Shown here one piece after another: positions 18,677 to 44,317 of a stretch of DNA of 64,000 nucleotides (the first letter of the stretch is position 1; every line of letters begins with the position of its first letter). Where the stretch lies: positions 32,001 through 96,000 of IMG/VR virus record IMGVR_UViG_3300025108_004223. One strand, 5' to 3'. The translations under genes and the position numbers were made by a program. The stretch is from a virus. The notes beneath the pieces were generated by a model that saw only the letters and a program-made list of their open reading frames with translations, was not told the origin of the DNA and made no database searches.

Positions 18677-19027
18677 CTAATTATTGCTACAGTTGTTGAC
18701 ACATACCTGAGGCGGCTTGTCACTTTTCCACCCATCATAGTATATGTAAGTTTGAAATATTTCATGTGCAATAATTTCATCAAGACTATGATATTCCAAA
18801 TTATTCCAGTTAGGATCATTATTCATTAGGTCCATAATCCTTTCATCTTCAACAAATGCAATAGAGTCGTATTCTTTAACACGACCTTCGTTATTGTAAA
18901 CGTCTCGTAGAGTCCATGCATTACTGAAAAAGCAACAAGGCCATACTTTATTATCTGGAGTTACTTCCCAACGTCTTATATTTTGGATATGATCCATTGC
19001 CTTGCATTTGATATTACATTTAGACAT
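18677..19027 (-). CDS. Stand-alone SPASM/twitch-like Fe-S domain protein
   Basis: KC...VTPDNKVWPCCF...LDEII...PPQVCVNNC; ATG 19027 (TTG 19033 alternative). Confidence 0.65.
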   Translation of the reverse strand: MSKCNIKCKAMDHIQNIRRWEVTPDNKVWPCCFFSNAWTLRDVYNNEGRVKEYDSIAFVEDERIMDLMNNDPNWNNLEYHSLDEIIAHEIFQTYIYYDGWKSDKPPQVCVNNCSNN

Positions 19028-19029
19028 AA

Positions 19030-19674
19030 TCAATATCCTATATTAATTCCATTGTCGTCACATAATTTATTACATGCCTGCATATTTTCATCAGTTATTA
19101 ATCCATATGATCTATTATTGTAACGGAATATAATTCCAATATTCATATTGTCTGCTATTTGTTTAGCCAGTGTAACCTGTTGCCAATTCCAATCAAATAT
19201 TATATACAACCATTGTGCATATCCACCATTGTCAGCAAATGCTTTCATGTTGTTTATTGCACGTTCAAAATCAACACCTTCTCTATACAACCAATTAACA
19301 TCATGTGTAGCGCCATCTATTGCAAAATCTATCTTTAATCTTTTTTTATACTTTTTTGCAATCGACTCATACCAACCAGGTGCTCGTAACCCACCATTTG
19401 TTGATATAGTAACCATTGGTGCATAATTTAATGCGGTTTCGATAAAGTTATCAACTTGAGGATGCATCATAGGATCGCCAAACTCACCACAAAATTCAAT
19501 ATCATCAAGCTCTACATTTTTAAGATTAGCAAGTCTTTTTTCAAACACATTTAAGTCCATGTGCTTTAATTCAAGCCATGATTCTTTCTCACCTGTGTCC
19601 TCGTTTGTTCTAGCACAACTTCTACACTTAGCTTGGCAATAAGTGGTTAATGCAAAGTCAAAAGAATGTTTCAT
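19030..19674 (-). CDS. Radical SAM core domain (no auxiliary domain)
   Basis: YCQAKCRSC, CGEFGDPMMHP, STNGG, FAIDG. Confidence 0.85.
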   Translation of the reverse strand: MKHSFDFALTTYCQAKCRSCARTNEDTGEKESWLELKHMDLNVFEKRLANLKNVELDDIEFCGEFGDPMMHPQVDNFIETALNYAPMVTISTNGGLRAPGWYESIAKKYKKRLKIDFAIDGATHDVNWLYREGVDFERAINNMKAFADNGGYAQWLYIIFDWNWQQVTLAKQIADNMNIGIIFRYNNRSYGLITDENMQACNKLCDDNGINIGY

Positions 19675-20306
19675 CTTTCACTCAGATGATCCCTTATAAA
19701 CAAATAGCTATCATCTGTTAACTTGGCATTGACTACTAACCAAATACTATCATAATTAGTGCTACAATTAAATAATGTGTGTGCTTTTGTAGTATTCACT
19801 ACGTAACATTGTCCAATCTCAAAGTTAAGTGTTGTATCTTCTAACATAAATCTACAATGAGGCGCATTACAATTTTCTATACCCCATATAAGTCTAAAAC
19901 TAGTTTGCTCACCAAACACATGATCTCTGTGTGGCGGGAAGTATCCGCCTGGTGGCAGTTTTAGGAAGTGCGATCTAACACTCCAATCTAACATAGGACC
20001 CATTACTCGTTGTAGCTCAGAGCTGGTATTATATAATTCTGTAGGAACATTAAAATCATCTTCATGCCATGTTGTTCCATGTTCACGGTTATATTGTCTT
20101 AAACTATCTAATGCAGGACCTGGTCCACATTTGCCACGTTCGTTGAGAACACATAAGCCGTCACGTTTAATCCAATCTTTGTGTGGATTATATTGAGACC
20201 ATTTGTCGTTGTGTGGTGTAACTTCATGTAGTAATTGATCTACATCAAATTCAGCATCGATTTGATAAAAATCACCCCACTGCGTAATTTTTGAAATGTC
20301 ATTCAT
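19671..20306 (-). CDS. Asp/Asn beta-hydroxylase-like Fe(II)/2OG oxygenase
   Basis: LPPGGYFPPHRD, VNTTKAHTLFN. Confidence 0.72.
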   Translation of the reverse strand: MNDISKITQWGDFYQIDAEFDVDQLLHEVTPHNDKWSQYNPHKDWIKRDGLCVLNERGKCGPGPALDSLRQYNREHGTTWHEDDFNVPTELYNTSSELQRVMGPMLDWSVRSHFLKLPPGGYFPPHRDHVFGEQTSFRLIWGIENCNAPHCRFMLEDTTLNFEIGQCYVVNTTKAHTLFNCSTNYDSIWLVVNAKLTDDSYLFIRDHLSER

Positions 20307-20315
20307 TTTGATTTC

Positions 20316-21152
20316 CTACTTGTCGTGTGTGTTGACATAGTTCTGCTTGAACGATGTCTGTGGATTCTCTCCGCCTTTTACACGTTTGTCTAGATGTTTT
20401 ACATATTGAATCATGCCATGATCAGAAAATGAATCTAACCTGCCTTTAAACAATCCTCTGATAATACCACGCCATACGTCTTTGATACGTTGCCAGCCTG
20501 TTAGGTTTCTTAAGTTTCCATAGTGATTAAAGTATTGACAATGTCCATGATGAACATAACCAAATATTAAGAATGGAACTCTAGTTACTATATCTGCATT
20601 ATTAACCCAACGATAATGAGTGAATGGAAAGTTTTCAATATACGTTCTCCACCCAACTCTAGGTGAGCCAAATGTATGTAGTTCTTTTGGATTATTTAAA
20701 GCACTGTCACCTCTACAACGGCTTGCTACTATAGTTGACATAGCTGCACCAAGTGAATGTCCACAGAACCAAATACTACGTTTTGATTGCTCTCTAATTA
20801 GGTCTTCTTTAATTAAATCCCATAATTTATCTACTTCGCCTTTAAATCCACCATGCACTCTGCCTATTGTTTCTGCAACAACTGGAAATGCTCTAGCGTC
20901 TGCTTTAATATCATTGTATTGTGTTGGCTGTGTGCCTCTACATGCAATCACTAAATCATGTTTATTCATAAAGCGATATGCTTCTGCGCCATCTATATTA
21001 TAAAACTCAACAGTAGTGAATCCTAATTTCCTTGCTAGTTTTTTAACCTCAGTTACTTTATAATAAGCAATCTGGGCCAGTTCTGCAAATAATAAGGCTC
21101 TTTTGTTACCTGACAGTAATTCTATTTTATTTGTTAGTTTTATGCTAAACAT
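20316..21152 (-). CDS. Lipase class 3 (alpha/beta hydrolase)
   Basis: IACRGTQ, VHGGF, CGHSLGAA, TFGSPRVG, NADIVTRVP, DH. Confidence 0.9.
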   Translation of the reverse strand: MFSIKLTNKIELLSGNKRALLFAELAQIAYYKVTEVKKLARKLGFTTVEFYNIDGAEAYRFMNKHDLVIACRGTQPTQYNDIKADARAFPVVAETIGRVHGGFKGEVDKLWDLIKEDLIREQSKRSIWFCGHSLGAAMSTIVASRCRGDSALNNPKELHTFGSPRVGWRTYIENFPFTHYRWVNNADIVTRVPFLIFGYVHHGHCQYFNHYGNLRNLTGWQRIKDVWRGIIRGLFKGRLDSFSDHGMIQYVKHLDKRVKGGENPQTSFKQNYVNTHDK

Positions 21153-21157
21153 ATATG

Positions 21158-21165
21158 TATTTATA
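21158..21165 (-). promoter_or_regulatory. T4-type late promoter TATAAATA
   Basis: Exact TATAAATA on the - strand immediately upstream of the lipase ATG. Confidence 0.55.
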
Positions 21166-22282
21166 CTCTACGCTTAGGTATCTTGCTATCAGCACTACTA
21201 ACACATGCTTTTGTTGTGCATAATGTAGGTTTATCAAACAATTTAAAGCCGGTTTCAATATTACCTAACGGTTGATCACCACAACTATAACTACGTTTTA
21301 TACTTCCATCTGGCTCTCTAATAATGATACCTTGGTATCCACTGTTACACATCCAGCCTTTGAAATTGTTAAAATCAAATGCATTAAAACGTTCTGCTTG
21401 GTCCATATACCATTTCTTGCCTTGTGAGTCTGTAAACTCTACTTGCATGTGCCATGGAACACTTGCATCATTTCTGCCTATTGTATAATCTGGAATTTCA
21501 AATTTAGGTTTAGGACGTTTAACTACCCTTGCTTCTGCAGCCTTTTGCTCTGTATAACTACGCTGTGGCATTCCATTGTGTAATTTTGCTTTCATTTCAT
21601 CTGTGTAACCCTCAACAACTTTACTTGCTGTTGGATCACTTTGTGGTTTGAGTGTTACGTTAATACCTTGCTTGTGAAAGAACAATGCATTATCATAATA
21701 CAAGTCAAATACTTCTGGAACCATAACCATGTTAATAGTTACCTGCACATCATGTTGTTGACATAATACTAATTTGTCTGCAAGGTCTTGCATCTTCTCT
21801 GGAGTATCAACATGCTCTACGTGTAAACTACATGTGATACTTGCTCTGTGAAAATGACTTGCATAGTCAACATATGTTTTAAACCATTTTATAGGTCTAC
21901 TACAATTGCTTGTCATGTGTATACTTGTATAGTTTGTGTTATGCACATCATCTGCTAAATGTTTTAGCATGTCTAAATAACCCGGATGGAACGTAGGCTC
22001 ACCTCCACTTAAACTAAAGTGAAAACTATTGAATCCATTCTGTCTTGCTTGGCGTTTTATCTCGTCTATTGTTTTGAGATTGAGTTCGGTAGGACGGTGG
22101 TCTTTACGGTCGCTACGGGCATAAGGCCAACAATAGCTGCATCTGTAGTTGCAGAATCTTCCCAATAGCCAACTAACTGTAAACAAATCACGATACAACA
22201 AAGTCCGCTGACCAACTTGAACCAAGTCGTCAAAAGGTATTTTTGTGAAATCATAATTACTCCAATTCAGTTCTTCACTCAT
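21161..22282 (-). CDS. Radical SAM protein (C-terminal Cys domain)
   Basis: FCNYRCSYC, LSGGEPT, MTSN; C-terminal CNSG...SC...CTTKAC. Confidence 0.88.
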   Translation of the reverse strand: MSEELNWSNYDFTKIPFDDLVQVGQRTLLYRDLFTVSWLLGRFCNYRCSYCWPYARSDRKDHRPTELNLKTIDEIKRQARQNGFNSFHFSLSGGEPTFHPGYLDMLKHLADDVHNTNYTSIHMTSNCSRPIKWFKTYVDYASHFHRASITCSLHVEHVDTPEKMQDLADKLVLCQQHDVQVTINMVMVPEVFDLYYDNALFFHKQGINVTLKPQSDPTASKVVEGYTDEMKAKLHNGMPQRSYTEQKAAEARVVKRPKPKFEIPDYTIGRNDASVPWHMQVEFTDSQGKKWYMDQAERFNAFDFNNFKGWMCNSGYQGIIIREPDGSIKRSYSCGDQPLGNIETGFKLFDKPTLCTTKACVSSADSKIPKRRV

Positions 22283-22294: not shown

Positions 22295-22855
22295 CTAATC
22301 ATGCTGTAATGGATCTACGCTCAGTTCATTAACTGATAAGTGTTCGGGCATATCAATTACATATTCTATTAAATCTACTGCTTCGTCTAGTGTCATTGTT
22401 TTACGTCCTGGGTGTTTATGTGCATGGTTCTCTAATGTGCCAAATGTAACATAACTTACCTTAGGACCACCTTGCCAAATGCTTTTTAAACCCATTGCAT
22501 TGCTTGTGCTACGCAAGGCCTTTTTTTCTTGTTGATAAAGCCAATCGCTACCCTTTGTAGCTCTGTCAGTTGTAGAGCTTAAATTGACTATATGTAGTCG
22601 TTTAAGGTGTCTTAAACTGGTTTTATAGACTACATCTAGTAGCAAGGTTTGATTGAAGTGCCATAATGCACTACAGTTAATAAAAACGTCAAAGTTAAGA
22701 GCCTTTTCTGCGAGCTTAGATCTATAGCCATTTTCAGTTAAATCGTAACCCCATGTGGTTCTACTAACAAATGTTGCATTAGGCCAGCGTTTAGCAATAG
22801 CACTTGCTACACCTTCTTCTGGATTGCCTGTGCATAGTATTGTTTTAGACATCAA
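22295..22855 (-). CDS. Short-chain dehydrogenase/reductase-like protein
   Basis: ILCTGNPEEGVASAIA, FINCSA, IVNLSS, YQQEK (YxxxK). Confidence 0.7.
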   Translation of the reverse strand: MMSKTILCTGNPEEGVASAIAKRWPNATFVSRTTWGYDLTENGYRSKLAEKALNFDVFINCSALWHFNQTLLLDVVYKTSLRHLKRLHIVNLSSTTDRATKGSDWLYQQEKKALRSTSNAMGLKSIWQGGPKVSYVTFGTLENHAHKHPGRKTMTLDEAVDLIEYVIDMPEHLSVNELSVDPLQHD

Positions 22856-24071
22856 TGTATCCTTTAAACTCAGGACATGCTACAAGTAGTTCACCACGTT
22901 GTAATGTATCCATTTTTAAATTATAGTCTATAAACTGTTGCCATAGTTTGTCATGCCAATCTTCGGCTCTCATATACTTTAATGTGTCCATTACTTTGGG
23001 CCATTTCTGATAAGGCAGTAAACTTAGTATTGCTTTCTCTTTTAGTGCATTAGGTAGCACTCGTATATTCATGCAATCTGGGTGGTTAAGAATATTGAGA
23101 TAAACTTGGTCACCTTCTAACCCACGTGACTCTGCAAAATCTAACAGTTCATGTAACGCACATATGTTAAGGACTTGAACTGTGCAATGTATTTGAATAT
23201 CTACATTATCAAACGTGTTTAGCTCGTCGAAGTTTTTCTCTACTTTTTCCCAACTACTTGGATAACGGATGTATCTATCTCGGTCCCCTACTGCATCAAT
23301 ACTACAGTTAAGTTGGACCCGTTTAAACTTGCTCCAATATTCAATCATCTTAGGTGGAATGTTAGTTAGGTTAGTATTGTATTTTAATTTAATTCCACTC
23401 GCTAAATCGTTTTCAATACAGTAGTCTAGTAATTTATATTGTGATGTAGCAAGTGTAGGTTCACCACCCGTTAAATATATTTCTTGAACTGTATGTGCAA
23501 TGTCTTGAAAGTTTAGCCCAGTTTTCTTAAAGTCTGGCCATTCTGTCATTACATTCATAAATTTTAAAGTCTCACCTGTAAGCTCTACTGGTGGGTCTAA
23601 TTTTGCTGTTGGAATAACTTCGTTCCAATCTTTAATCCACATGCTACTTGCCCAAGGATTACACATTCTACATTTTAAATTACACAAGTTACCCAAACGT
23701 AAATCTACATAACGCACATCTACTGGAATCTCAGTATCTACCTTAACATCATCTGTCCACCATTTTTCATTAAAGCCTGCACGTGGACTGCGTATACCTG
23801 CATCTTCTTCACGGAAACATCTTACACACATTTCTGGTTTCTCACCATCAATAAGCTGTTGTCGTATTTTTGTGTATGTAGGACTGTTCCATACTTCTTC
23901 CAAATCGTTCTTATAAATTTTGTATGGTTTGTCTGTTTCAGGGTTTATAATTTGGTTTGTGTTAGGATTACTATTACAGCATACTCTAAACGAACCAGCG
24001 GCATTTGTTGCCACATGCATAAATGGTAATACGCAAAATGTTTTACTTGGTAATGGTTTATCTGTTTTCAT
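22845..24071 (-). CDS. Radical SAM protein with N-terminal twitch domain
   Basis: FCVLPFMH..VCC..CVRC; LRLGNLCNLKCRMC; LTGGEP; KYNTN. Confidence 0.9.
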   Translation of the reverse strand: MKTDKPLPSKTFCVLPFMHVATNAAGSFRVCCNSNPNTNQIINPETDKPYKIYKNDLEEVWNSPTYTKIRQQLIDGEKPEMCVRCFREEDAGIRSPRAGFNEKWWTDDVKVDTEIPVDVRYVDLRLGNLCNLKCRMCNPWASSMWIKDWNEVIPTAKLDPPVELTGETLKFMNVMTEWPDFKKTGLNFQDIAHTVQEIYLTGGEPTLATSQYKLLDYCIENDLASGIKLKYNTNLTNIPPKMIEYWSKFKRVQLNCSIDAVGDRDRYIRYPSSWEKVEKNFDELNTFDNVDIQIHCTVQVLNICALHELLDFAESRGLEGDQVYLNILNHPDCMNIRVLPNALKEKAILSLLPYQKWPKVMDTLKYMRAEDWHDKLWQQFIDYNLKMDTLQRGELLVACPEFKGYIDV

Positions 24072-24191: not shown

Positions 24192-25163
24192 TTAAATAAA
24201 ATCCTGATAGTTTGTTCCATGTATTTTATCCATAATTTTACTTTGTTCTATCAATGTCTTTCTTAGTATTCCATCTTGCATAGCATCTGGCGACATAAAT
24301 GCTGGGCTAATTACTGGTGTTGATTTATACCAGTTAATTTTATTATCCTGGCACCAAGTTATTATCTCATCTAAATTGTTACGGTTAAAAACCATTGGTA
24401 ATACTGTAACTGTTAGATTTGTATTCTTAGGTTTGTGCTTATTAAATATAACAGTGTTATTGCTTGTTGTCAACCAACTTGAACCAGGTCGTATATATTC
24501 ATATCTGTCACCTACTGCTTCTATGCTTATGTTAATATAGACTTGCTTAAATTTCTCAAAGTAATGATTCCATGCAGTCATGTCATGGCTTCCATTTGTT
24601 ATTAGATGTAATTCAATTGCTGGTGCTACATCTTCATCTATTAGTCGTTGTATAATCTTTTTTACTTGTGGTATCATAAATGGTTCACCACCTGTAAACT
24701 TTACAATTTTTGCATCTAACATAAGATGACTAAACTCTAATGATTGTTTAACCCAACCTGTATCTTTTAATTTGTCAAATTGAGGGTGCCAATTCTCTTG
24801 TTGATTTTCTTTAATTATTTTTGCCCATGTGCTACTGCTTGTTTGATTACACATTCTGCATGCAAAGTTGCAAGTGTTGTTTATTTTTAGGTCCCAATGC
24901 TTAATCCCTACTTCGTTCTCAAACTGCTCGTTATATTTCGTGCGTAAACTTTGTCCTGTTAGTTCTTCGCTTAATTTACATTCAGCACATTCGTTTAGCC
25001 ATTCTGTTTCGCTACGCTTACTCCATTCAGCATGACGTGTTTCCCAATCGTCATCCCAATATAAATTCTTTGTTCCTCTTTTTACCTGAAATGCACAACA
25101 AGGTCGCACTGCTCCAGTAGGTCCTATTGTTACACCGTTTTTAAATATCGAACATCTTGGCAT
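24192..25163 (-). CDS. Radical SAM protein with N-terminal twitch domain
   Basis: C...RPCC...CAEC; NTCNFACRMC; FTGGEP; ITNG. Confidence 0.88.
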   Translation of the reverse strand: MPRCSIFKNGVTIGPTGAVRPCCAFQVKRGTKNLYWDDDWETRHAEWSKRSETEWLNECAECKLSEELTGQSLRTKYNEQFENEVGIKHWDLKINNTCNFACRMCNQTSSSTWAKIIKENQQENWHPQFDKLKDTGWVKQSLEFSHLMLDAKIVKFTGGEPFMIPQVKKIIQRLIDEDVAPAIELHLITNGSHDMTAWNHYFEKFKQVYINISIEAVGDRYEYIRPGSSWLTTSNNTVIFNKHKPKNTNLTVTVLPMVFNRNNLDEIITWCQDNKINWYKSTPVISPAFMSPDAMQDGILRKTLIEQSKIMDKIHGTNYQDFI

Positions 25164-25890
25164 AATTTTTGTTTACTATTTTCTTAAATTCATATGATGG
25201 TCCACCATCGAATATCATATGTATACGTGGTTCGTCACTGCGATTCCATACTGCATGATAATGACCAGTGTTTATTTTTATTGCACGACCTGGAGCATAT
25301 GGCATAGCGCCGTAATCTTGTATGACTAGTTTACACCCATCTGGATTATTAATAGCAACGTTAGTTGCTCCTAGCCCTGTTATTCGATCTCTGTCTGTAT
25401 GCGGCCTAATCCATCCGTTTGGTAGCAGGGCCATAAATCTAACACGACTAAAGTTTTCGTATAGCATTTCATCTTGCATCCACTCTTTAGTAATTGGTGT
25501 ATATCTGCTAATATCTGTCCAGTCACTTAATTCATGTTCTGCTTCGTCTGGCATTCCATAATCTTCTGGACAATTAGTATGCACACTACTCATACCATGC
25601 ACACATAAACTTAACCAGCCGCCGCCACTGTTTGCTCTGTGTAAACTAAAGCATTCAGTTTCTAGCAAGTGTATTGCTTCTGCATGTATTTCTTTCCATG
25701 GCACATTAATATCTGGTAATGTTACCCAAGGAACACGTGTGTTGTCCATTATGTCGTTAATTTCATCTGCTATAATTTGTTGTTTATCAGCATCAGCAGG
25801 ATTAGTATTTTTATTTTCGTGTTCGTAGAACCAATCTTTTGCCTCTTCGTCAATTTCTTCCCAATATGCTAATCGTTTATAAGTTTCCAT
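25141..25890 (-). CDS. Asp/Asn beta-hydroxylase-like Fe(II)/2OG oxygenase
   Basis: RVRFMALLPNGWIRPHTD, NTGHYHAVWN.S..PRIH. Confidence 0.78.
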   Translation of the reverse strand: METYKRLAYWEEIDEEAKDWFYEHENKNTNPADADKQQIIADEINDIMDNTRVPWVTLPDINVPWKEIHAEAIHLLETECFSLHRANSGGGWLSLCVHGMSSVHTNCPEDYGMPDEAEHELSDWTDISRYTPITKEWMQDEMLYENFSRVRFMALLPNGWIRPHTDRDRITGLGATNVAINNPDGCKLVIQDYGAMPYAPGRAIKINTGHYHAVWNRSDEPRIHMIFDGGPSYEFKKIVNKNYAKMFDI

Positions 25891-27372
25891 TTAAAATATC
25901 CCCGGTAATGTTCTCATATTTTTATACTCGTAATATTCACCGCCCGGTGTATCACCTGAAAAATATATAGTTTTGTTATTTTGCAATAACTCATTGAATA
26001 GATCAATGAATGCCACTTGAGCATCAAAGTCTGGTGAGTTAATATAGTTAATCTCATATTGCCATATATTACTTAGTTGCAATAATGCTTTACAATCTTT
26101 GCCTATTAACTCGCTTAAACGTTTCCATTCTTTTACTATATCAATTTTAATAAACTGATGATCAAGTGTTTTAATAAAGTCCCAATGCTCTAGCCATTCT
26201 TCTTCATTCTTATAACTTCTAATAAAGTCTAATGCATTTTCTTCATCATACCAAATAAATTCGTCACTTGGTAATCCTAGATCTGTAATAACATGGAAGT
26301 TATCTTTATAAAATTTTGGAAAGTCTTTACCATCCCAATTTTCTAATAGGTGTTTTGTCCACCCAATTCCAAATGGGCTAAAGTCTGTCCATAATATACG
26401 TTTTATTGTATCACGTTGATGGCTAATATGTTTAAATTGATGTAGCCCGCTACAAGGAGCAACAAGTGTGTCAATTCCTAATGGGTCACCTTGTGGCACC
26501 ATTTCTGTATTAGTAACATACATGATGTGTGTATCCATGACCTTGTATTGAAATAATTCACGCTTGTCATTATTTACTAAATTATATCCATAACTACGAC
26601 TCTCGTCAAGACTAAGTCTTGTGTTAAAGTCATAATCAAAAAACCATTCTTTTGTAAATTCTAAATCATCTTCTACATAACAACATATCTTATGTTTACG
26701 TATATCATAATCTAAGTTATGTATTGTTAACCCATTTAAAAATGCTAACGGAAATAATGTATTAAAAAAGTCATCATTAAAATCTTCTGGCTTATCAACT
26801 AGTTTCCATTGGTGGCCGGCCAACACTGCATCTTTGGCAGATACCCACATTGGAGTATAATCGTCATGCATGTGTTCAGCTGATGATCTATAACTTGGAT
26901 GTTGTTGCAATTGATCGCCAATGTTCTCTAAACTTTCAAAATGTGCTAACAAAGGTTCGAATGTTTTAAGGTTAAGAACAATACATTGCTCGTGCCATTG
27001 TGGAGCATCTGTGCCACGTTGTAATATATGTCCTGCAGCTAACCAATTAGTTTCGTTCCATTTGTTATCTATTGCATTTATTACTTCTTCGTCAAACTCT
27101 GTTTCACCTGGCCAATTTCCATCAAACCAAATCACAGCATTTTGATATCCGAGAATACATAGATGTCTGATAACATCTCCAAAAAATCCTTGACTATATC
27201 TATCACAATGCAAGAAAGAATATTCTGTGCTATTGTTAATATTGATTTGCATAAGTTTTTTCAGTTTGCCTGCATAAGCATCTTCATCTTTTAAAGCAGG
27301 ATGTAATACTTCATTGAAGAACACATGAACTATCTTATTATCTTTTAACTCTGGTTTTAATTTTAAATACAC
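25891..27372 (-). CDS. Hypothetical two-domain protein (paralog of 27372-28826)
   Basis: Shared GY....WF.G.W, W..AG, LNL..F, Y..NTE, W.DF motifs. Confidence 0.7.
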   Translation of the reverse strand: MYLKLKPELKDNKIVHVFFNEVLHPALKDEDAYAGKLKKLMQININNSTEYSFLHCDRYSQGFFGDVIRHLCILGYQNAVIWFDGNWPGETEFDEEVINAIDNKWNETNWLAAGHILQRGTDAPQWHEQCIVLNLKTFEPLLAHFESLENIGDQLQQHPSYRSSAEHMHDDYTPMWVSAKDAVLAGHQWKLVDKPEDFNDDFFNTLFPLAFLNGLTIHNLDYDIRKHKICCYVEDDLEFTKEWFFDYDFNTRLSLDESRSYGYNLVNNDKRELFQYKVMDTHIMYVTNTEMVPQGDPLGIDTLVAPCSGLHQFKHISHQRDTIKRILWTDFSPFGIGWTKHLLENWDGKDFPKFYKDNFHVITDLGLPSDEFIWYDEENALDFIRSYKNEEEWLEHWDFIKTLDHQFIKIDIVKEWKRLSELIGKDCKALLQLSNIWQYEINYINSPDFDAQVAFIDLFNELLQNNKTIYFSGDTPGGEYYEYKNMRTLPGIF

Positions 27373-28826: not shown

Positions 28827-28951
28827 TTGATTGTCCTGTCTACTTCATATTCATCAATATACATAATTGCAAGTCCACCTGCATTACCTACTACTATCCC
28901 TAATAACAACGCAAGGAGCATAACAGAAAAAAATTGTAATGCACCTTTCAT
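28823..28951 (-). CDS. Small single-TM protein (42 aa, not in ORF track)
   Basis: MKGALQFFSVMLLALLLGIVVGNAGGLAIMYIDEYEVDRTIK; ATGA overlaps at both ends. Confidence 0.65.
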   Translation of the reverse strand: MKGALQFFSVMLLALLLGIVVGNAGGLAIMYIDEYEVDRTIK

Positions 28952-36007: not shown

Positions 36008-36010
36008 ATT

Positions 36011-37239: not shown

Positions 37240-38076
37240 ATGACACGAATCGCCCTAGACAAAGATCATGCCAATGAGATAACTGTGCATGAATTTGACG
37301 CTACTAATATAGATATTATAGCACACTCTGAAGAATTATACAAGTCTTTTGAGAGCGGATGGCCAGTAGTAATTAAGAATTTAGTTATTCCTGGCATTGA
37401 CTATGATTACTATGATAACCTTGATGATTGGATTATTAAGGATAACAAATGGATTATGCCTTGGTATAACTCACATATTAAGAAACGTGACCGTATGCGT
37501 AGTGAACGTAATTGGACCGAAGAACAAATTGATGAATTTCATAAGAAACACAAGCAAGCCAACAACGGTTGGAATGAGATATTTGATAAACTTTTCCCAC
37601 GATACAACACACCAGAACGTATGCTCAGCCATAGATATAATATGCTGGTTGAGAACAAATTGCACTTAGATGAATTGGACGAGCAACATACCGGACAGGA
37701 ACAACAGATAAGAATGTTTGTTAACTTAGATAAAAAGCGTCCTCGGGTGTTAACATTCGGACCAGACTTAGAACAAATGTGGTATAAGTATAAAGATGAA
37801 TTTAACTTAGAAGAATTAGATAAAACTAACATACATACATTTATTAGTGAGATGCGTAATCGTTGCGTATGGAATGATAAAAAATGGGATCAGTTTCATC
37901 ACCCACTTCATTATCTTACATTTGATCCAGGTGATGTTTGGTTTTTTAATGCACAATGGATTACACATCAAATTGTATTTGGTTCAAAATTACAATGCTT
38001 TGAAACAGACATTATGAATGATAGTTTATTATGTCCAGAACTATGTATGACAGAAAGGATAAAGAACTTTGAGTGA
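37240..38076 (+). CDS. Kdo-hydroxylase-like Fe(II)/2OG oxygenase
   Basis: KLHLD, IRMFVNL...PRV, FDPGDVWF....THQ, resembling the KdoO-family LHVD..ILRVF.NIN..PRVW..FPPG..W..H pattern. Confidence 0.6.
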   Translation: MTRIALDKDHANEITVHEFDATNIDIIAHSEELYKSFESGWPVVIKNLVIPGIDYDYYDNLDDWIIKDNKWIMPWYNSHIKKRDRMRSERNWTEEQIDEFHKKHKQANNGWNEIFDKLFPRYNTPERMLSHRYNMLVENKLHLDELDEQHTGQEQQIRMFVNLDKKRPRVLTFGPDLEQMWYKYKDEFNLEELDKTNIHTFISEMRNRCVWNDKKWDQFHHPLHYLTFDPGDVWFFNAQWITHQIVFGSKLQCFETDIMNDSLLCPELCMTERIKNFE

Positions 38077-39085
38077 TATACAACATACAATAATCGAAAA
38101 CTACTTGCCGAAAGAATTATTCAACAAGTATTATAAAGAATATCCAGTAGATTGGATTAAAGAATATTGTAGTGACCCGACGGTAAGTGAACACGACAGT
38201 AGCTTGTATGGAAACTATAGTGCTCCTACAGAATTATACGATCCAGATTTAATAGAATGGGTTAAACAACAACTACCAGATATTAAATTAAATGCGGTTG
38301 GACGTGAAGTAACGCACGACCATTTTTATACTAACTTTCATTATGACGAACGTGGTAGTTGGATAGAGGAACACAACGACTTAAAAGATATGCGTTGGTT
38401 AGTTACAAATCAGATATACATGTGTAACAATCAAGGTGCAAGATTATTAGATAGAGAACTTAATGTCACTGCTGAAGTTCCTTGTGTGCCTAACACATTT
38501 TATAATATTGTTGCAGACCCTTGGAGTTGGCATGATGTGCCAGAAGTAAGCAACCATAAAAGAAGTATACTATTTCGTGTAGGTAAACGTAGAAGCAATA
38601 GTATTGCACATCCCGATGACGGAGACGATACCGCTTATATCATATACAACAACTTTCAAAAAGACAGACATTATGCAAAGTTAGGTCTACGTATGGGCAA
38701 TCTAACTGAGGCACATCTACATAGTTTAGGTGCTAAAAACATAATGCATACTGCTTGGCGTAGTGAAGAAAGCCTGCATAGAAACATAAAGAAAGCCTTA
38801 CAGCGTTATAAACGGGTGGTTATTGTGCTTAGTGGATACTTACTGCCTAGCTTAACGATCGCTGATAATACCGCACTACAGACGCTTACAGACGCTAATA
38901 CGCCGGTGAATTTAGATGAAAATGTTGAGATTGCGGAGTATTTCCGTATAACTGATGACAATATAGATGCTTATGCAGACTGCGTATTTTCCGATTTAAG
39001 CGGTGATCATGTGTTAGCTGAAGCTGAGCAAGTTATGTATACTTACTACCAAAATAAGCTACATTTGAACTATATAGACCTATAA
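38069..39085 (+). CDS. Fe(II)/2OG oxygenase domain fused to an unknown C-terminal domain (paralog of 6533)
   Basis: IENYLP, EHND, QIYM, SWHDV..KRS; C-terminal DTAYII..LG..N..KRVVIVLSG. Confidence 0.68.
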   Translation: MSDIQHTIIENYLPKELFNKYYKEYPVDWIKEYCSDPTVSEHDSSLYGNYSAPTELYDPDLIEWVKQQLPDIKLNAVGREVTHDHFYTNFHYDERGSWIEEHNDLKDMRWLVTNQIYMCNNQGARLLDRELNVTAEVPCVPNTFYNIVADPWSWHDVPEVSNHKRSILFRVGKRRSNSIAHPDDGDDTAYIIYNNFQKDRHYAKLGLRMGNLTEAHLHSLGAKNIMHTAWRSEESLHRNIKKALQRYKRVVIVLSGYLLPSLTIADNTALQTLTDANTPVNLDENVEIAEYFRITDDNIDAYADCVFSDLSGDHVLAEAEQVMYTYYQNKLHLNYIDL

Positions 39086-39102: not shown

Positions 39103-40365
39103 TCAAATACCGTCCTGTATGCGTTTAAATTCAGGAGCTATACTCATTACATCGTGTCCGCGAAAGATGTCGTAGTTGTTGGTTATATCAACATACTGCT
39201 TCATTATCTCTGGATTATATACATGATCTGGATCCTTACCAAAGTTAACCATTTCCATTAAAGGTTCTTCATAATCCTCGTAATGTGGACTATTATGGAT
39301 TGATTTTAAAAACTCTAGCACTTGTTTTTCTTGCTCATCACGTAACCATTGTGGACTATGTGCCATACTGTAATAATGTGGTTCTACTAATTGATTAGTG
39401 CTCATGCCAATTCCTTTGTCATTCTTACATTGATAATTATGCATGAACTTCCAAAAGTCTACAATGTGCAATGCATTGTGTATTTGGTTGACTGTTGTTA
39501 CACGAACTTTAATACGTTTACCGGCTTTAGTATTTGAAAACTTAACCAGTTTATCAAAGTTTTTCCAAACAGAGGCCCACTTGGAAGGTGGACGTAAATA
39601 ATCATTCATGGCGCCCATGCCTTCCAAGGAGCAGTTTACAATCACTTTTTCAAACTTCCCTAATTGTTCTAACCATCTATCTTGCATATTAGTGATATTG
39701 GTATAGAAACTAAGTTCGATGTGATCAGCGTGTCCGGATTCTACTGCGAGATCTAGCAAAGTAAACATATCCTTTGCAACCGTTGGTTCCCCGCCTATAA
39801 GTTTTATTTTACGAGCTTTTCTTATCATGTCCTTAAAGCTCGCCCAGTCGATTCCAGGTTGAAGAAGTGCCTGCTTCTTGTCTGCAATGTTGGCATGCCA
39901 GTCGGGATGGTTCGCTCCGAGTCCGCTTTGTACCATTGTCGCACGTTCCACACTCACTAAGTGAGATGCTTCTTTGTTGCACATCTGACACTGTAAATTA
40001 CACAAATTGCCAAGCCTGAAATCAAATTGTAAAGGTTGTTTAACCTCCCAATCATTAACGGAAGCGTCAGCAACCACTTCGTCAATTACGTCTTCCCACA
40101 CTTCGTTTTCCCATTGTCTGCTGCTGACAATATTATTGCGTTCCAAGTGTAAACATTCACTACACTCAGGTAACCATTCACCTGCGGTCATGCGTTTACG
40201 AACATCTTTAATGTAGTCGTGGTTCCATGTTCCGTCGATGCCTAGTTTCTCTTGGTCTACTAGTTCTGTGGGTTCTTTGGCCATGCAACATAACCTATAT
40301 CGTCCGCCATTATATGTGCTATATTGAACGAATGGTAATGCACAAAAGCCGTTATCTGTTTTCAT
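39103..40365 (-). CDS. Radical SAM protein with N-terminal twitch domain
   Basis: FCALPF..LCC..CSEC; FRLGNLCNLQCQMC; LIGGEP; YTN. Confidence 0.9.
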   Translation of the reverse strand: MKTDNGFCALPFVQYSTYNGGRYRLCCMAKEPTELVDQEKLGIDGTWNHDYIKDVRKRMTAGEWLPECSECLHLERNNIVSSRQWENEVWEDVIDEVVADASVNDWEVKQPLQFDFRLGNLCNLQCQMCNKEASHLVSVERATMVQSGLGANHPDWHANIADKKQALLQPGIDWASFKDMIRKARKIKLIGGEPTVAKDMFTLLDLAVESGHADHIELSFYTNITNMQDRWLEQLGKFEKVIVNCSLEGMGAMNDYLRPPSKWASVWKNFDKLVKFSNTKAGKRIKVRVTTVNQIHNALHIVDFWKFMHNYQCKNDKGIGMSTNQLVEPHYYSMAHSPQWLRDEQEKQVLEFLKSIHNSPHYEDYEEPLMEMVNFGKDPDHVYNPEIMKQYVDITNNYDIFRGHDVMSIAPEFKRIQDGI

Positions 40366-40958
40366 ATGTATCTCGTTAGTAAACTCTTTCTTACCCGATC
40401 GCCTTGCTCGGTATAATGGTAATCAGCATTTGCGTTACTCCCATATACAAGAAAAGAATTTCTTATTAGTGGTAGTTCTTTGCTTTCTAAAATATCAAAG
40501 CAGTTATCATTATTTTCATTATAGCTATTTTTATCTACATTGCAAAGTATTGTTCCATATTTTTTATAATCTATATCAGGCATGTATATATGCCATTGTA
40601 TTACTTCTTTACCAATGGCATCAGTGTGTAAATGTATATAATGTTCTGGATCATCCCATAGATAATCCGTGTAAATTCTACTTATATCATTCCATGGTCT
40701 AGTGGCTGTTAATTTATTTTTTATTGTATCATATAATTGTTTAGATGTTTCTACAAATTCTCTAAATGGTTTCCATTCTACATCAGCACTAAGACTATGA
40801 TCAGGGGGCCTACATTCAAACTGTTGAGCATGAAAATCTTTTACTAACTGAAAATAATGATCGTCACTTAAAAAATTTTCAATCCATAAATGTTCGTATG
40901 GACTAGTAAGCAATTCTGCAGAGTCTATTTTATCTATGATATAATTAAATTCCTGCAT
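40362..40958 (-). CDS. Fe(II)/2OG oxygenase
   Basis: PYEHLWIENFL, LHTD, IYMP...YGT, HY...RKSL. Confidence 0.72.
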   Translation of the reverse strand: MQEFNYIIDKIDSAELLTSPYEHLWIENFLSDDHYFQLVKDFHAQQFECRPPDHSLSADVEWKPFREFVETSKQLYDTIKNKLTATRPWNDISRIYTDYLWDDPEHYIHLHTDAIGKEVIQWHIYMPDIDYKKYGTILCNVDKNSYNENNDNCFDILESKELPLIRNSFLVYGSNANADYHYTEQGDRVRKSLLTRYI

Positions 40959-41506
40959 TAAACTGTTTTAAGTAAATCTAAAAATAGTTCTGCTCCATTA
41001 GACTGATTTTCTTCCCAAGTTTCTGGTGCATCTTTGTCTGCCATGTCGCTTGCATATTTAATTATCGTAGTTGGCTTGTTAAACATCTTGCCAACTTTAG
41101 CAATTGCATAACCTTCCATGTCAACTAAGTGACTTCTTAATGCAGGTGGGTCTGTTACAAAATTATCACCTGTGCTTAGAATTACTTTACTATCAGCGTT
41201 AAGTGTTATGTCACCTGCAATTTCTGTTGTTTCGTATGGTGTTAGTCCTAAATCAATAACTGGTCTACAATCCATATCACGTTGTCTTACTGCACCTACT
41301 TCTAATAGCTTGCCTGCTAAGTCTGGTGCTAATGCGCCTGCTGTTCCATAATTAATAATACGTTCACAGTCAGGTTGGTTAACAGCCAGTGTTGCTGAAA
41401 CTGTTGCATTAATTTTACCAACGCCTGTATACCATACTTTAAATTTTTCAGGGTTAAGTTTATTCTCTGGCAGTTCGCCTTTGAGTGCTACTAATACGTA
41501 TATCAT
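40958..41506 (-). CDS. 5'-methylthioadenosine/SAH nucleosidase (Pfs/MTAN-like)
   Basis: TGVGKINA, INYGTAG, STGDNFV, DMEGYAIA, KYASD. Confidence 0.88.
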   Translation of the reverse strand: MIYVLVALKGELPENKLNPEKFKVWYTGVGKINATVSATLAVNQPDCERIINYGTAGALAPDLAGKLLEVGAVRQRDMDCRPVIDLGLTPYETTEIAGDITLNADSKVILSTGDNFVTDPPALRSHLVDMEGYAIAKVGKMFNKPTTIIKYASDMADKDAPETWEENQSNGAELFLDLLKTV

Positions 41507-42180
41507 TTTATATCCTTTGTTTTATTTATTATATCTATAAATCTTCTAGCTATATCTTTTTGTTCTTTCGGCCCAGGGTGTTTGCCATCGTGGGCTCTAT
41601 CAACATAGTTACGATGACAAAGAATATGGTCTATTAAATTTATGTCAGACGGCAATGGAAGTTCTTTTTCTTCTACCCCTAAATCTTGCAACATATGATA
41701 ACTTTTTACTCCTATACTTTGACATGCATAATGTGTTAAACTTATCATCATGATAGTGTTCATAATATTGTCATATGCATCTGTAACTTTGTTATACGCT
41801 TTCTCTAATTTTTTATTAGGACCATTTTTAGTCCTACCTTGTCCTGCATCTAATGTTTCTTCAAACTCTTGTTTTAATATAACATGTCTATCAGAATAAC
41901 TCCATAAAAAACATACAATATCATTTTGCTTTATTTTAGGAAGCATGTGTTGAAATCGCCATGCTATTTCTTTATTGCCTGATCCGGGTGTGCCAAAATT
42001 ATAACATTCTTTATTGATGTTTTTAGCAACAAGTGTTGGCCATGCATACTTACTTGCATAACTTTTGTATGGATCATATGTAGGAACTCGATATGGGACC
42101 TTGGGATCAGGCCATACTTTTATATCGTCTAATGCATATCCATATGTAAGACTATCACCAAATGCATATAATTTACTCAT
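41503..42180 (-). CDS. SGNH/GDSL-like hydrolase/acyltransferase (paralog of 32374)
   Basis: YAFGDSLTYG, AWPTLVA, NFG.PGSGN, HDGKHPG. Confidence 0.75.
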   Translation of the reverse strand: MSKLYAFGDSLTYGYALDDIKVWPDPKVPYRVPTYDPYKSYASKYAWPTLVAKNINKECYNFGTPGSGNKEIAWRFQHMLPKIKQNDIVCFLWSYSDRHVILKQEFEETLDAGQGRTKNGPNKKLEKAYNKVTDAYDNIMNTIMMISLTHYACQSIGVKSYHMLQDLGVEEKELPLPSDINLIDHILCHRNYVDRAHDGKHPGPKEQKDIARRFIDIINKTKDIK

Positions 42181-43639
42181 CTAGTAGGTCTGGATCAATT
42201 GCACCTGTTGGTGGTGTCCATGGCTCGTCTAGTAAGTAAGCCATTTCAGGGAATGTCTTGCGGAAATCTGTCCCACGCATAGCATCAAGTTTATTAATAT
42301 ATTCACGGAACTCAGGTAAACGTCTGCTCCAGTCTTCGCTACGTGCAAAACTAATCATACCACGTAAACGCTTAATACCGTAACTTGCGTTTTCCCATTG
42401 TTCTTTAGTTACTTTTCCTTTGTGCCATGTAGGAACACCTAGTTCCCAATTTTCTTTCCACCATTCAATAAATTCTTCATACTTGGCTTCTGTTTTGTCT
42501 AAGAATTCGTCTGGTAGCACTTTAACATTTAAGTGTCCTGGCCAGTATACAAAGTGATAGTTAATACCACCTGCACCAAATGGCCACATATTTGTTTTAT
42601 GTAATCCACTTTCTGCTAGTTTCCATTTAAGGAAATCTGGAATGTAATGAATGTTAAGAGCGTTAACGGCACATGCAATTGTAACTTCTACATTATTAGT
42701 TGTTTCAGTGTCTAAACGTTTAAACATTGCAAGTTGGTGATCCCATTCACTTGGGTAACGAATATAGTCATTCATAGCACCAATGCTGTCAATACTGTAG
42801 TGGAAACGCACTTTCTTAAAGTGTGACCATAACTCTAACAATCTATCCGGTAGTTCAATTCCATTTGAATTATAACGAACTTCCATTTCACTAGCATAAC
42901 CCATTTCGATTACTTTGGCTAGGATTTCATAGTGTTCTTCAATAACTGTAGACTCACCACCTGCAAAGTATAGCTGACGCATGTATGGAATTTGTGCATA
43001 AAATTGATCCCAAAACTCTGGATTGTTTTTGTGCCAGTTATAACTTGCACCAAACTCTTTACCTTTGTTTTCCCAAATCATAGTTTGTTTAAGACTCTCA
43101 TTGGTAATCTGTGGATATAATTTGTTCCAGTCTTTTACCCAGCCTGAGCTATCATGTGGACTACACATAACGCACCCCAACTGACATTTCGTTCCCATAC
43201 GGATATCAATATATCTAAGTTTACTATCTGTTGATCCATCTTCGTATGTTTCCTTTACTAGCTCATCTACATCAATACCATTGTTCATCCAGTATTGTGT
43301 TTCCCATTGACGTTTTGATCTGTGGCCTGCCGCTTCTTCTTTAAAGCACTTTAAACAACTTGCAGGCTTCTCACCATCAAGCATCATCTTACGAACACTT
43401 CGCATATATGTGTTATTCCATGCTGTATTTAGATCTGTTGTGTTTAGGTTAGCAGGCTTGCCATCTTCTGTTTTAACAATACCTACTCGTCCACCATGTT
43501 CTTTATCGTTTGTAGCACCAACACTACTTGCATTGGCTGTGCAACATACTCGCATACTCCCATCTGGTCTTGTGCTTAAATGTATCCATGGTAGTATACA
43601 AAATGTTTCTGATGGGGTGGGTAGGTCGTGTTCGCTCAT
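42173..43639 (-). CDS. Radical SAM protein with N-terminal twitch domain
   Basis: FCILPWIH..VCC..CLKC; TKCQLGCVMC; FAGGE; YNSN. Confidence 0.9.
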   Translation of the reverse strand: MSEHDLPTPSETFCILPWIHLSTRPDGSMRVCCTANASSVGATNDKEHGGRVGIVKTEDGKPANLNTTDLNTAWNNTYMRSVRKMMLDGEKPASCLKCFKEEAAGHRSKRQWETQYWMNNGIDVDELVKETYEDGSTDSKLRYIDIRMGTKCQLGCVMCSPHDSSGWVKDWNKLYPQITNESLKQTMIWENKGKEFGASYNWHKNNPEFWDQFYAQIPYMRQLYFAGGESTVIEEHYEILAKVIEMGYASEMEVRYNSNGIELPDRLLELWSHFKKVRFHYSIDSIGAMNDYIRYPSEWDHQLAMFKRLDTETTNNVEVTIACAVNALNIHYIPDFLKWKLAESGLHKTNMWPFGAGGINYHFVYWPGHLNVKVLPDEFLDKTEAKYEEFIEWWKENWELGVPTWHKGKVTKEQWENASYGIKRLRGMISFARSEDWSRRLPEFREYINKLDAMRGTDFRKTFPEMAYLLDEPWTPPTGAIDPDLLDE

Positions 43640-44317
43640 TTACATCTCCGGGATTTTACAAGTTGCGATGTAGACATCATTGTGCTTAATATTATTATTT
43701 ATCTTGTTATAATCTAATTCAAAAGCATCACTTCTATCAAATCCCGCCCAAGAGGCAAATTCGTTTGTATTGTAAGGTTTAAATGTCAAACCTTTACGCA
43801 TTGCAAAGTCTGTAATCTTAGAACTTTCTTGCCATAGTATCTCATACATTCTATTATAGTCTTTGTAGCCTGGTCTGTAATCTGGATAGTGACTTTCATC
43901 GAAGCACATAACTTCGCTCCACCAAGCAAAACTTTTTTGTGGTTCTCTATAAATTAAAACTATTTTATCGCCTGGAAAGTTATTCCATATAAAATCTAAA
44001 TTAAAATGTCTTGCAAAGAAATGGCTTTTAATAATACGATAGCCTTCTCCAGAGAATACATTGTTAATATCGTCTTGTAATTTATGTTTTGTTAAGTGGT
44101 TAAAGTCAACCCAGTCTTCGCCACAGCCCATGCCAGGCCCCCAATAGCTACCACGATGGCCATTGTTAGCATCGTTTGGATTAAACGCTCTATGATATTG
44201 TGTTCTGTTTGGTGTTTCATCTGTGCGATCACAATGTAAAATGGAACGCATCTGTATATCGATACCGCTCCATCTACTACCTGGAATTCCACAGAACCAT
44301 ATATTTGTATTATTCAT
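43640..44317 (-). CDS. Sulfotransferase-like P-loop protein
   Basis: N-terminal FCGIPGSRWSGI (5'-PSB-like), IKSH, LIYREP (3'-PB-like). Confidence 0.45.
   Translation of the reverse strand: MNNTNIWFCGIPGSRWSGIDIQMRSILHCDRTDETPNRTQYHRAFNPNDANNGHRGSYWGPGMGCGEDWVDFNHLTKHKLQDDINNVFSGEGYRIIKSHFFARHFNLDFIWNNFPGDKIVLIYREPQKSFAWWSEVMCFDESHYPDYRPGYKDYNRMYEILWQESSKITDFAMRKGLTFKPYNTNEFASWAGFDRSDAFELDYNKINNNIKHNDVYIATCKIPEM

Follow-up and report, generated by a model that had tools for sequence, protein, structure and literature searches.

Background

The closest described relatives of the locus considered here come from cultured T4-like phages. The Campylobacter phages CP220 and CPt10 carry a module of radical S-adenosylmethionine (SAM) genes with a putative amidinotransferase gene, reported in 2010 with its function unexplained (Timms et al. 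2010, PMC2853527), and the marine T4-like cyanophage S-SCSM2R carries a run of genes, ORF298-310, that its authors read in 2025 as 'antibiotic synthesis genes' (PMC12801897). Mass spectrometry of S-SCSM2R virion preparations detected another amidinotransferase along with a prolyl dihydroxylase-like protein, both encoded elsewhere in that genome (PMC12801897). Smaller phage modules combining radical SAM, amidinotransferase and sugar-transferase genes are therefore already known, as is the protein family NF033640 (N_Twi_rSAM, here N_Twi), which is catalogued and uncharacterised. Here we describe a block of 27 open reading frames (ORFs), ten of them radical SAM genes, at positions 18677-44317 of a 64,000-base window of viral DNA. 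The window corresponds to bases 32001-96000 of a linear, 126,762-base IMG/VR virus record (IMGVR_UViG_3300025108_004223), which is estimated to be ~35% complete.

Most of the radical SAM genes in this block belong, by sequence, to N_Twi, and appear to have paralog-by-paralog orthologs in the chromosomes of predatory Bdellovibrionota. We give roughly an even chance to the proposal that the block encodes a pathway, operating in the cytoplasm, for building or editing a hypermodified glycan or glycoconjugate that probably bears guanidino groups. Our searches of the literature on N-terminal twitch radical SAM enzymes and on jumbo phage or Bdellovibrio radical SAM clusters returned no description of this system.

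Organization of the block and its source contig

A previous sequence-only reading of the window had counted about 30 mostly overlapping or coupled genes. The tight packing is borne out, with neighbouring genes mostly abutting or sharing 1-23 bases and only three gaps exceeding 100 bases, while the count falls to 27, with 25 genes on the minus strand and a plus-strand pair at 37240-38076 and 38069-39085. Below, each ORF is named by its lower coordinate, and block genes are on the minus strand unless stated otherwise. The block ends at a hairpin followed by a T-run (18626-18676), where transcription directions converge. None of the block proteins contains a hydrophobic segment typical of membrane helices, and seven genes (25891, 27372, 33080, 37240, 38069, 40362, 43640) have no match in Pfam, NCBIfam or PHROGs. 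The 121-base gap at 28827-28947 holds, on the minus strand, a short open frame beginning MLLALLLGIVVG that possibly encodes a small hydrophobic peptide.

The contig is viral and comes from a T4-like marine jumbo phage. Its family-B DNA polymerase shares 50% identity with the enzyme of Sinorhizobium phage Phosso, 48% with that of Atu_ph07 and 44-45% with those of Rak2-like jumbo phages, and it also encodes a clamp-loader ATPase, a thymidylate synthase, a 5'-3' exonuclease and a QueE-like enzyme. A complete SAM synthetase gene, metK, lies 9 kb from the block (53596-54684, minus strand; three S-AdoMet_synt domains, 2e-30 to 2e-57). The Glycos_transf_2, TGT and Terminase_6N models found no match in the 127-kb contig, itself incomplete.

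Radical SAM genes

Ten block genes match either the Radical_SAM domain or NCBIfam radical SAM models, and each contains exactly one CxxxCxxC motif. This agrees with the number proposed from the sequence alone, although the positions then assigned to the motifs are the low ends of the genes rather than the motifs themselves. Seven of the ten pass the PF04055 cut-off; the others (30183, 39103, 42173) fall slightly below it but exceed the curated NF033640 cut-off, a whole-protein score of 170 bits. Seven genes in all exceed the latter (22845, 24192, 28948, 30183, 33694, 39103, 42173; 182-422 bits), and the whole contig yields 16 radical SAM matches, 10 of them N_Twi. The radical SAM genes are thus not a scatter of unrelated types, which would have counted against a common pathway: most belong to one family, and their neighbourhood is conserved in related phages.

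The best conserved N_Twi gene is 42173-43639 (NF033640 422 bits), 84-96% identical in 22 viral contigs. A second core gene, 39103-40365 (293 bits), occurs in 23 of 25 related loci and is 70-94% identical where present. Genes 28948-30183 (320 bits) and 30183-31400 (229 bits) form a conserved module with 31391 and 36011, and 30183 is sister to orthologs in loci L039 and L074 (support 0.96). Gene 33694-34944 (262 bits), with a SPASM match of 1.4e-12 at residues 16-77, likewise has bacterial sisters (support 0.97); 22845-24071 (373 bits) is 45% identical to its ortholog in L034, and 24192-25163 (182 bits) is a short form. The sequence-only reading had also placed two radical SAM genes outside the block, and both are present on the plus strand: 842-2221 is N_Twi (252 bits, with SPASM at residues 27-89 preceding Radical_SAM), and the other, at 11021-12031, belongs to a second family.

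This second family comprises 11021 (PF04055 1.1e-10) and the block genes 34934-36007 (9.9e-10; distant homologs in CP220) and 19030-19674 (6.8e-8; CxxxCxxC at residue 13), each pair of which is 33% identical. Beside 19030, the ORF 18677-19033 encodes a small SPASM-like partner with six cysteines (Pfam SPASM 0.0028, under cut-off); Bdellovibrionia has a comparable split pair (231 aa and 137 aa), whose small ORF shows no BLAST similarity. The remaining gene, 21161-22282 (PF04055 1.4e-13), represents a third type lacking the N-terminal twitch; it is 59-63% identical to Bdellovibrionota genes, and these orthologs adjoin the ortholog of 42173.

In N_Twi proteins a Pfam SPASM match at residues 13-98 precedes the Radical_SAM domain at residues 120-310. 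Cysteines C13, C31, C32, C82 and C85 of the N-terminal region are nearly invariant among 52 N_Twi sequences, making this region a putative auxiliary iron-sulphur (Fe-S) domain. The phage paralogs retain the radical SAM cysteines and a GGE motif, and also the N-terminal cysteines, with 33694 as a partial exception (it is without the CC pair). At 21-30% identity among themselves, the N_Twi genes of the block are old, deeply diverged paralogs. An AlphaFold2 (AF2) model of 22845 (predicted local distance difference test score, pLDDT, 95.8) places the radical SAM core at residues 118-371, for which the best fold matches are anSME (Z 13.1) and BlsE (Z 12.5).

Two adjacent, divergent N_Twi-like radical SAM genes also occur in Vibrio phage KVP40 (L005, 135055-137161), beside QueC-like and NAPRTase-family genes.

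Orthologous clusters in Bdellovibrionota

A search with an alignment of 22845 orthologs against one genome per prokaryotic species returned 80 loci, nearly all from Bdellovibrionota metagenome-assembled genomes (MAGs). N_Twi genes above cut-off occur in 45 of 201 sampled Bdellovibrionota genomes, in three of 301 genomes (the query genome included) from the phylum of a MAG labelled Gammaproteobacteria, and in none of 14 control genomes. Five Bdellovibrionota genomes hold 9-20 copies each, often arrayed; in one there are 13 N_Twi genes in 30 kb adjoining rpoD, dnaG and rpsU, and in another eight stand in tandem. The cluster type is therefore not confined to phages, since Bdellovibrionota chromosomes hold superclusters that are orthologous and also larger.

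Resemblance extends well beyond the radical SAM genes. Relative to the phage genes, those of the Bdellovibrionota clusters are 43-46% identical for the amidinotransferase, 43-45% for the pyridoxal phosphate (PLP) enzyme, 37-46% for the short-chain dehydrogenase/reductase (SDR), 32-36% for both PF05118 hydroxylase types, ~24% for the glycosyltransferase-A (GT-A)/methyltransferase-like protein, 26-34% for 37240, 59-63% for 21161 and 59-64% for 42173. Three modules recur: the amidinotransferase and PLP enzyme with 28948 and 30183; 42173 and 21161 with a second-family radical SAM gene; and a hydroxylase, the GT-A/methyltransferase protein and a further hydroxylase. The gene order of the first (28948-30183-31391-36011) is kept in the Bdellovibrionales locus L041, and the second sometimes lies beside a carbamoyltransferase gene, as in L114 (Bdellovibrionales), where that gene stands beside the 42173 ortholog. 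A NodU/CmcH-type carbamoyltransferase gene (phrog_1601, 6e-101) adjoining another radical SAM gene is found on our phage contig as well, at L004:14482-17054, mirroring L114.

Glycosyltransferase and nucleotide-sugar genes accompany such arrays in bacteria. In L115, eight tandem N_Twi genes adjoin a GT2 glycosyltransferase, a uridine diphosphate (UDP)-sugar dehydrogenase, an AsnB-like amidotransferase and a PMT_2 GT-C protein, while the 13-radical-SAM operon of L117 includes GT4, GT28, Aminotran_1_2 and Sua5/YrdC domains.

In a midpoint-rooted FastTree tree of 52 chosen N_Twi sequences, each of five phage paralogs, out of six, groups as sister with its own bacterial ortholog and not with a fellow phage paralog (SH-like support 0.96-1.0). 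Such sister pairs indicate that the paralogs diverged before the phage and bacterial copies split, and that they travelled as sets. The block appears to be modular and to have been shared horizontally between phage and predatory Bdellovibrionota, with transfer possible in either direction.

Viral relatives and environmental distribution

Gene 42173 is carried, at the identity given above, by 22 IMG/VR contigs. Nearly the whole block occurs in order in three viral contigs, and 19 more have its right-hand core (39103, 40958, 42173, 43640 and a pair of flanking genes) along with inserts that vary. Related contigs contain between 9 and 20 radical SAM-type matches each, and one relative, 192 kb long, has a gene for a T4-type Gp23 capsid protein (5e-84). 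This conserved gene order, on a contig that is itself viral, upholds the sequence-only proposal of a virus-borne biosynthetic or tailoring cluster.

The stretch occurs in many marine metagenomes, and contigs assembled from marine RNA (four libraries, three studies) match relatives of most block genes at 90-99% identity. RNA libraries can hold DNA and these contigs are assemblies, so the matches speak to presence only and not to expression level, strand or timing. Stretches that these contigs leave uncovered carry no meaning. In three of the marine RNA libraries, contigs run straight from 32372 into 33693, which indicates relatives lacking 32374 and 33080; this pair is also variable among the IMG/VR relatives.

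Contigs related to this phage are also carried by MAGs labelled Crocinitomicaceae (L031), Gammaproteobacteria (L032), Rickettsiales (L049) and Neisseriaceae (L054). Identities are 50-80% for 21161 and 22845 in L031 and L032, ~64% for 42173 in L031 and L054, and ~35% for 19030 in L049. These are probably phage contigs binned into cellular genomes.

A glycosyltransferase-like pair and associated oxygenases

Two GT-like paralogs had been proposed from the sequence alone. Neither matches any hidden Markov model (HMM), yet the predicted fold of the first supports the assignment: an AF2 model of 25891-27372, built on 84 homologs (pLDDT 93.6), combines a GT-A fold with a class-I SAM-methyltransferase-like fold. 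Residues 9-280 resemble LARGE1 (Z 10.8), chondroitin synthase (Z 10.5), Mimivirus R699 (Z 9.8), PBCV-1 A64R (Z 9.1) and SpsA (Z 9.1), and residues ~250-488 resemble EgtD (Z 10.2, 251-487) and NNMT (Z 9.6). The family conserves a motif E-N/H-x-H-D-D-Y-T-P, whose H-D-D at 169-171 is kept in 52-69 of 84 homologs, together with G309 (81 of 84 sequences) and D330 (84 of 84); these residues fit the predicted nucleotide-sugar and SAM binding. The family is small, with 168 representatives among 1.84 billion. Its second block member, 27372-28826, is a tandem paralog (21% identity over 475 residues, E 1e-18). Single-sequence searches of the PDB with 25891, 43640, 31391 and 37240 gave nothing useful.

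Beside this pair lies 25141-25890, a PF05118 Fe/2-oxoglutarate (2OG) hydroxylase gene (Asp_Arg_Hydrox 3.6e-11). The hydroxylase is probably linked in function to 25891 and 27372, because seven of ten long homologs of 25891 are fused to PF05118, in both orders. It is also the clearest of the five Fe/2OG oxygenases that the sequence-only reading had listed. Gene 19671-20306 is a marginal PF05118-like case (22.7 bits, at cut-off), with Bdellovibrionota orthologs 32% identical and the H and D of its HxD motif invariant in the ortholog alignment. Gene 37240-38076 (plus strand) probably encodes a cupin-type Fe/2OG oxygenase, with H142, D144 and H243 (an HxD...H triad) invariant in an alignment that includes two bacterial orthologs; hhalign detected no relationship between its family and the PF05118 group. 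The other two were called by motif: 38069-39085 (plus strand), possibly an oxygenase, whose HxD region aligns with the PF05118 group by hhalign at a probability of 18%, and 40362-40958, an accessory protein with an HxD motif, no HMM match and one ortholog only.

Other enzymes of the block

The remaining enzyme assignments of the sequence-only reading mostly stand, at differing strengths. The amidinotransferase, 36011-37099, matches the arginine-dependent enzymes HsvA (2e-26, residues 6-356), StrB1 (7e-22) and SxtG (5e-17) in the PDB; its GGIHC lines up with the catalytic FHC in HsvA and StrB1 and, in GGHAD, the H lines up with their H-x-D, so that both catalytic Cys and His are accounted for. 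The PLP enzyme, 31391-32377, is a fold-type-I aminotransferase-like protein on a weak Aminotran_1_2 match (4.2e-5, 23 bits) with bacterial orthologs at 43-45% identity. Supercluster L117 holds a 337-aa Aminotran_1_2 gene, possibly related to 31391. The SDR, 22295-22855, is recognised by profile only: the single sequence has no Pfam match, whereas the profile of its orthologs, which are 37-46% identical in bacterial loci, matches 130 SDR chains in the PDB (best 1.6e-10, positions 87-197). The nucleosidase, 40958-41506, of the methylthioadenosine (MTA)/S-adenosylhomocysteine (SAH)/5'-deoxyadenosine type, is well matched (PNP_UDP_1 2.8e-13) and is present in almost all related contigs.

The two proposed SGNH proteins fare less well: 41503-42180 is an SGNH/GDSL-like hydrolase with a weak, sub-threshold match (Lipase_GDSL 1.8e-4, 22.1 bits), and the call for 32374-33090, a variable gene missing from most relatives, depends on its being a paralog of 41503 (29% identical). 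The proposed sulfotransferase-like protein, 43640-44317, has no HMM or PDB match and is a lead only, from the ESM Atlas, where its nearest clusters are viral proteins labelled 'sulfotransferase family' and the nearest Pfam-bearing ones are Sulfotransfer_3. A class-3 lipase/esterase gene, 20316-21152 (Lipase_3 3.4e-19), was absent from the earlier list; it appears accessory, and among the loci compared it occurs in one related contig and in none of the bacterial loci. The last gene, 33080-33697, is variable, without an HMM match, and 43-46% identical in two related contigs.

Neighbouring genes

Directly adjoining the block, 45877-48595 encodes a DUF2201 metallopeptidase/VWA protein (6e-35) and a MoxR/CobS-like ATPase (phrog_1297, 2e-98), which we take to be a CobS/CobT-like pair of the kind common in marine phages. 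The block is separated from the replication genes by small genes (49037-52103) with domains of the Smr, WYL_2 and, weakly, nitroreductase-like types. Elsewhere in the window are genes for a 927-aa subtilase (59902-62685; Peptidase_S8, 1e-39), for a trypsin-like protease with a PDZ domain (12094-13359; 2e-23), and for a QueE-like radical SAM enzyme (56356-57252; phrog_2076, 7e-50), which we group with those for a phosphoribosyl pyrophosphate (PRPP) synthetase (58227-59186) and thymidylate synthase (9148-10002). Unusually for a virus, the contig also encodes a TctA tricarboxylate-transporter membrane subunit at full length (L004:10829-12289, contig bases 118829-120289; 1e-85).

Proposed pathway and alternatives

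Genomic context favours a glycan-type product over the other readings. The GT-A/methyltransferase pair are the only transferases of the block with a recognisable acceptor-building fold, and in relatives they are fused to a hydroxylase; the bacterial N_Twi arrays of L115 and L117 sit among glycosyltransferase and nucleotide-sugar genes; and the phage contig itself encodes a nucleoside diphosphate (NDP)-sugar epimerase/dehydratase next to a GT4 protein, as well as a UDP-sugar dehydrogenase-like protein. Amidinotransferase genes likewise stand among glycosyltransferase genes in CP220 and S-SCSM2R. The block proteins all look soluble, implying work in the cytoplasm of the infected cell, and the adjacency of twitch-type radical SAM, PLP and amidinotransferase genes suggests conversion of a sugar hydroxyl to a ketone, then amination and amidination. 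This account is built on observed enzyme families with intact catalytic motifs, on conserved modules and bacterial orthology, and on the hydroxylase/GT-A fusions and glycosyltransferase co-location.

From these we infer that the substrate is a sugar, what type of reaction each radical SAM enzyme performs, in which sequence the steps run, and the final target, which might be a virion protein, the host surface or a soluble glycoside. In the scheme we propose, 25141 and 19671 would first hydroxylate an acceptor that 25891 and 27372 would glycosylate and methylate, in a logic like that of the collagen lysyl hydroxylase/glycosyltransferase LH3. Each N_Twi enzyme would then abstract hydrogen from a different sugar carbon by means of the SAM-derived 5'-deoxyadenosyl radical, leaving a keto group (as BtrN and anSME do) or causing epimerisation, deoxygenation or decarboxylation. 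Within the 28948-30183-31391-36011 module, the PLP enzyme could transaminate the keto group and the resulting amine could then receive an amidino group from arginine, which would yield a guanidino sugar. Other decorations may be added or removed by the SDR, the remaining oxygenases, the sulfotransferase-like protein and the esterases, while the nucleosidase would remove 5'-deoxyadenosine and SAH and the phage MetK would renew SAM.

Several observations weigh against this account. The peptide maturases SkfB, SuiB and CteB, as well as viperin, score within ~1.5 Z of anSME and BlsE against the 22845 model, and because these all score alike the N_Twi fold cannot pick out a sugar, peptide or nucleotide substrate; no NF033640 member with a known substrate or reaction was found in the literature searched. 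The GT-A call for 25891 is a predicted fold at Z ~10 without HMM support, PF05118 enzymes act mostly on proteins or lipids, and an initiating transferase, a flippase and a polymerase were not seen. We are more guarded about a further-reaching version, which we regard as tentative and on balance doubtful, in which N_Twi would be a new class of carbohydrate-editing radical enzymes, its long-diverged paralogs acting position by position on one sugar scaffold in this phage and in predatory Bdellovibrionota. With the hydroxylase-coupled GT-A/methyltransferase and the amidinotransferase they would produce a hypermodified guanidino glycan on hydroxylated protein residues, and this glycan would govern attachment to the prey or host, or protection from it.

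The alternative that survives best, although we consider it unlikely, is that the block makes a soluble small molecule, aminoglycoside/aminocyclitol-like or guanidino, with which the phage or the predator would poison competitors or reprogram the host. The pathways of streptomycin, butirosin and saxitoxin use tailoring enzymes of these classes, and the combination here of radical SAM, PLP, amidinotransferase, SDR, carbamoyltransferase and sulfotransferase-like proteins mirrors them. The PDB entries that best match 36011, namely HsvA, StrB1 and SxtG, are small-molecule enzymes. Solubility of all block proteins would suit such a product too, and it is how the smaller S-SCSM2R module was read by its authors, as 'antibiotic synthesis genes' (PMC12801897). 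A Pfam scan of the block ORFs, several of which remain unmatched, detected no inositol-phosphate synthase, 2-deoxy-scyllo-inosose synthase, polyketide synthase (PKS) or non-ribosomal peptide synthetase (NRPS), however, and the block contains no exporter; its bacterial homologs, moreover, lie in polysaccharide-type contexts (GT2, GT-C, UDP-sugar dehydrogenase).

Direct modification of proteins or peptides seems improbable to us. In such a system, whether one of ribosomally synthesised peptides that are modified after translation (RiPPs) or one acting on virion proteins, the radical SAM enzymes would cross-link or epimerise residues, with the PF05118 enzymes hydroxylating side chains. SPASM/twitch enzymes are mostly peptide maturases, and N_Twi has SkfB, SuiB and CteB among its best structural matches, while PF05118 is named after protein Asp/Asn hydroxylases. 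Yet no PqqD or RiPP recognition element (RRE) match was found in the 29 proteins scanned, the three gaps of more than 100 bases hold no conserved small ORF, and the bacterial arrays of 8-13 paralogs come without precursor genes; amidinotransferase, SDR, GT-A and nucleotide-sugar genes are also atypical of RiPP tailoring.

Hypermodification of phage DNA or nucleotides, with a base or sugar adduct that blocks restriction, is harder still to credit. Pathways of thymidine hypermodification employ PLP and radical SAM enzymes, the window holds the thymidylate synthase, QueE-like, PRPP synthetase and MetK genes, and the N_Twi-like pair of KVP40 adjoins a QueC-like gene. Against this, the 127-kb contig (~35% of the genome) yielded no match to a TGT/DpdA-type transglycosylase, no DNA-binding or DNA-glycosylase domain was matched in the block, and the orthologous clusters stand beside polysaccharide genes in bacterial chromosomes. 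Least credible, and in our view very improbable, is direct remodelling of host lipopolysaccharide (LPS) by hydroxylation of 3-deoxy-manno-octulosonic acid (Kdo) or lipid A or by deacylation: the HxD...H triad of 37240, the block's lipase and SGNH genes and PF05118 itself, which includes the lipid A hydroxylase LpxO, point that way, but a profile of ten 37240 orthologs matches PDB KdoO over 50 residues around HxD at a non-significant E = 0.4, Pfam gives no match at E 0.01, block proteins have no membrane-helix-like segment, and most relatives lack the lipase and SGNH genes, which are accessory. Of the sequence-only reading, the glycan-type product is backed by context, and the specific KdoO/LPS link finds no significant backing.

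Returning to the glycan pathway, a product of this kind would, if real, expose an unexplored radical chemistry of carbohydrates and would likely bear on adsorption, host range and self-protection. The phage-borne SAM synthetase and by-product nucleosidase imply heavy metabolic investment during infection. N_Twi comprises thousands of radical SAM enzymes; they are concentrated in two sorts of killers of bacteria, large marine phages and Bdellovibrio-type predators, between which they appear to move as ordered sets of paralogs. Because cultured phages (S-SCSM2R, CP220, KVP40) hold smaller versions, the question can be tested now.

Comparison with known systems

The sequence-only reading had described a phage-encoded cluster and knew of no characterised phage pathway of this size. 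The cluster type recurs in the Bdellovibrionota superclusters, and a phage module joining several radical SAM genes to an amidinotransferase gene was described earlier for CP220/CPt10 and is itself uncharacterised (PMC2853527). CP220 is likewise T4-like, and carries 11-12 radical SAM genes and an interchangeable module of five radical SAM genes, an amidinotransferase gene and two nucleotide-diphospho-sugar transferase genes. The same trio (several radical SAM genes, an amidinotransferase gene and nucleotide-sugar transferase genes in a T4-like phage) is present here; the CP220 amidinotransferase is 26% identical to 36011, and its radical SAM genes are homologous to our second family (34934, 19030). 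In contrast to those of the block, however, the CP220 radical SAM genes are not N_Twi, and its ~10-kb module has no PF05118/GT-A pair, SDR or nucleosidase. S-SCSM2R shares an amidinotransferase (23% identical), a radical SAM enzyme, a PLP enzyme of the sugar-aminotransferase type and several 2OG oxygenases within one operon, but differs in having one radical SAM enzyme only and five classical glycosyltransferases.

Other comparisons concern individual enzymes or their logic. The phage genes share with NF033640 an N-terminal, cysteine-rich twitch/SPASM-like domain followed by the CxxxCxxC core; what differs is that deeply diverged paralogs here sit within one cluster, whereas the family itself has only been catalogued. 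The radical SAM core of N_Twi finds its top structural matches in anSME, a SPASM/twitch radical SAM oxidase, and BlsE, a sugar-nucleoside decarboxylase, with the order of the auxiliary domain permuted in N_Twi. In aminoglycoside and aminocyclitol tailoring, BtrN (a twitch radical SAM dehydrogenase), a PLP aminotransferase and StrB1 (an amidinotransferase) carry out oxidation, amination and amidination, and the same classes stand side by side in 28948-30183-31391-36011. This resemblance is in logic only, as the twitch of BtrN is at its C-terminus and no cyclitol synthase is found here. LH3 and Mimivirus R699 couple an Fe/2OG hydroxylase to a GT-A domain, as the block does by adjacency and its relatives by fusion, and their GT domains are among the fold matches of 25891 (Z 9-9.8); the hydroxylase here is PF05118 rather than of the lysyl hydroxylase type, and an extra methyltransferase-like domain is present. 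Set beside all of these, the block is among the largest versions, with ten radical SAM genes in 26 kb, and adds a predicted GT-A/methyltransferase fold with its PF05118 fusion link, a paralog-by-paralog orthology, and a phage-borne supply of SAM combined with probable by-product removal.

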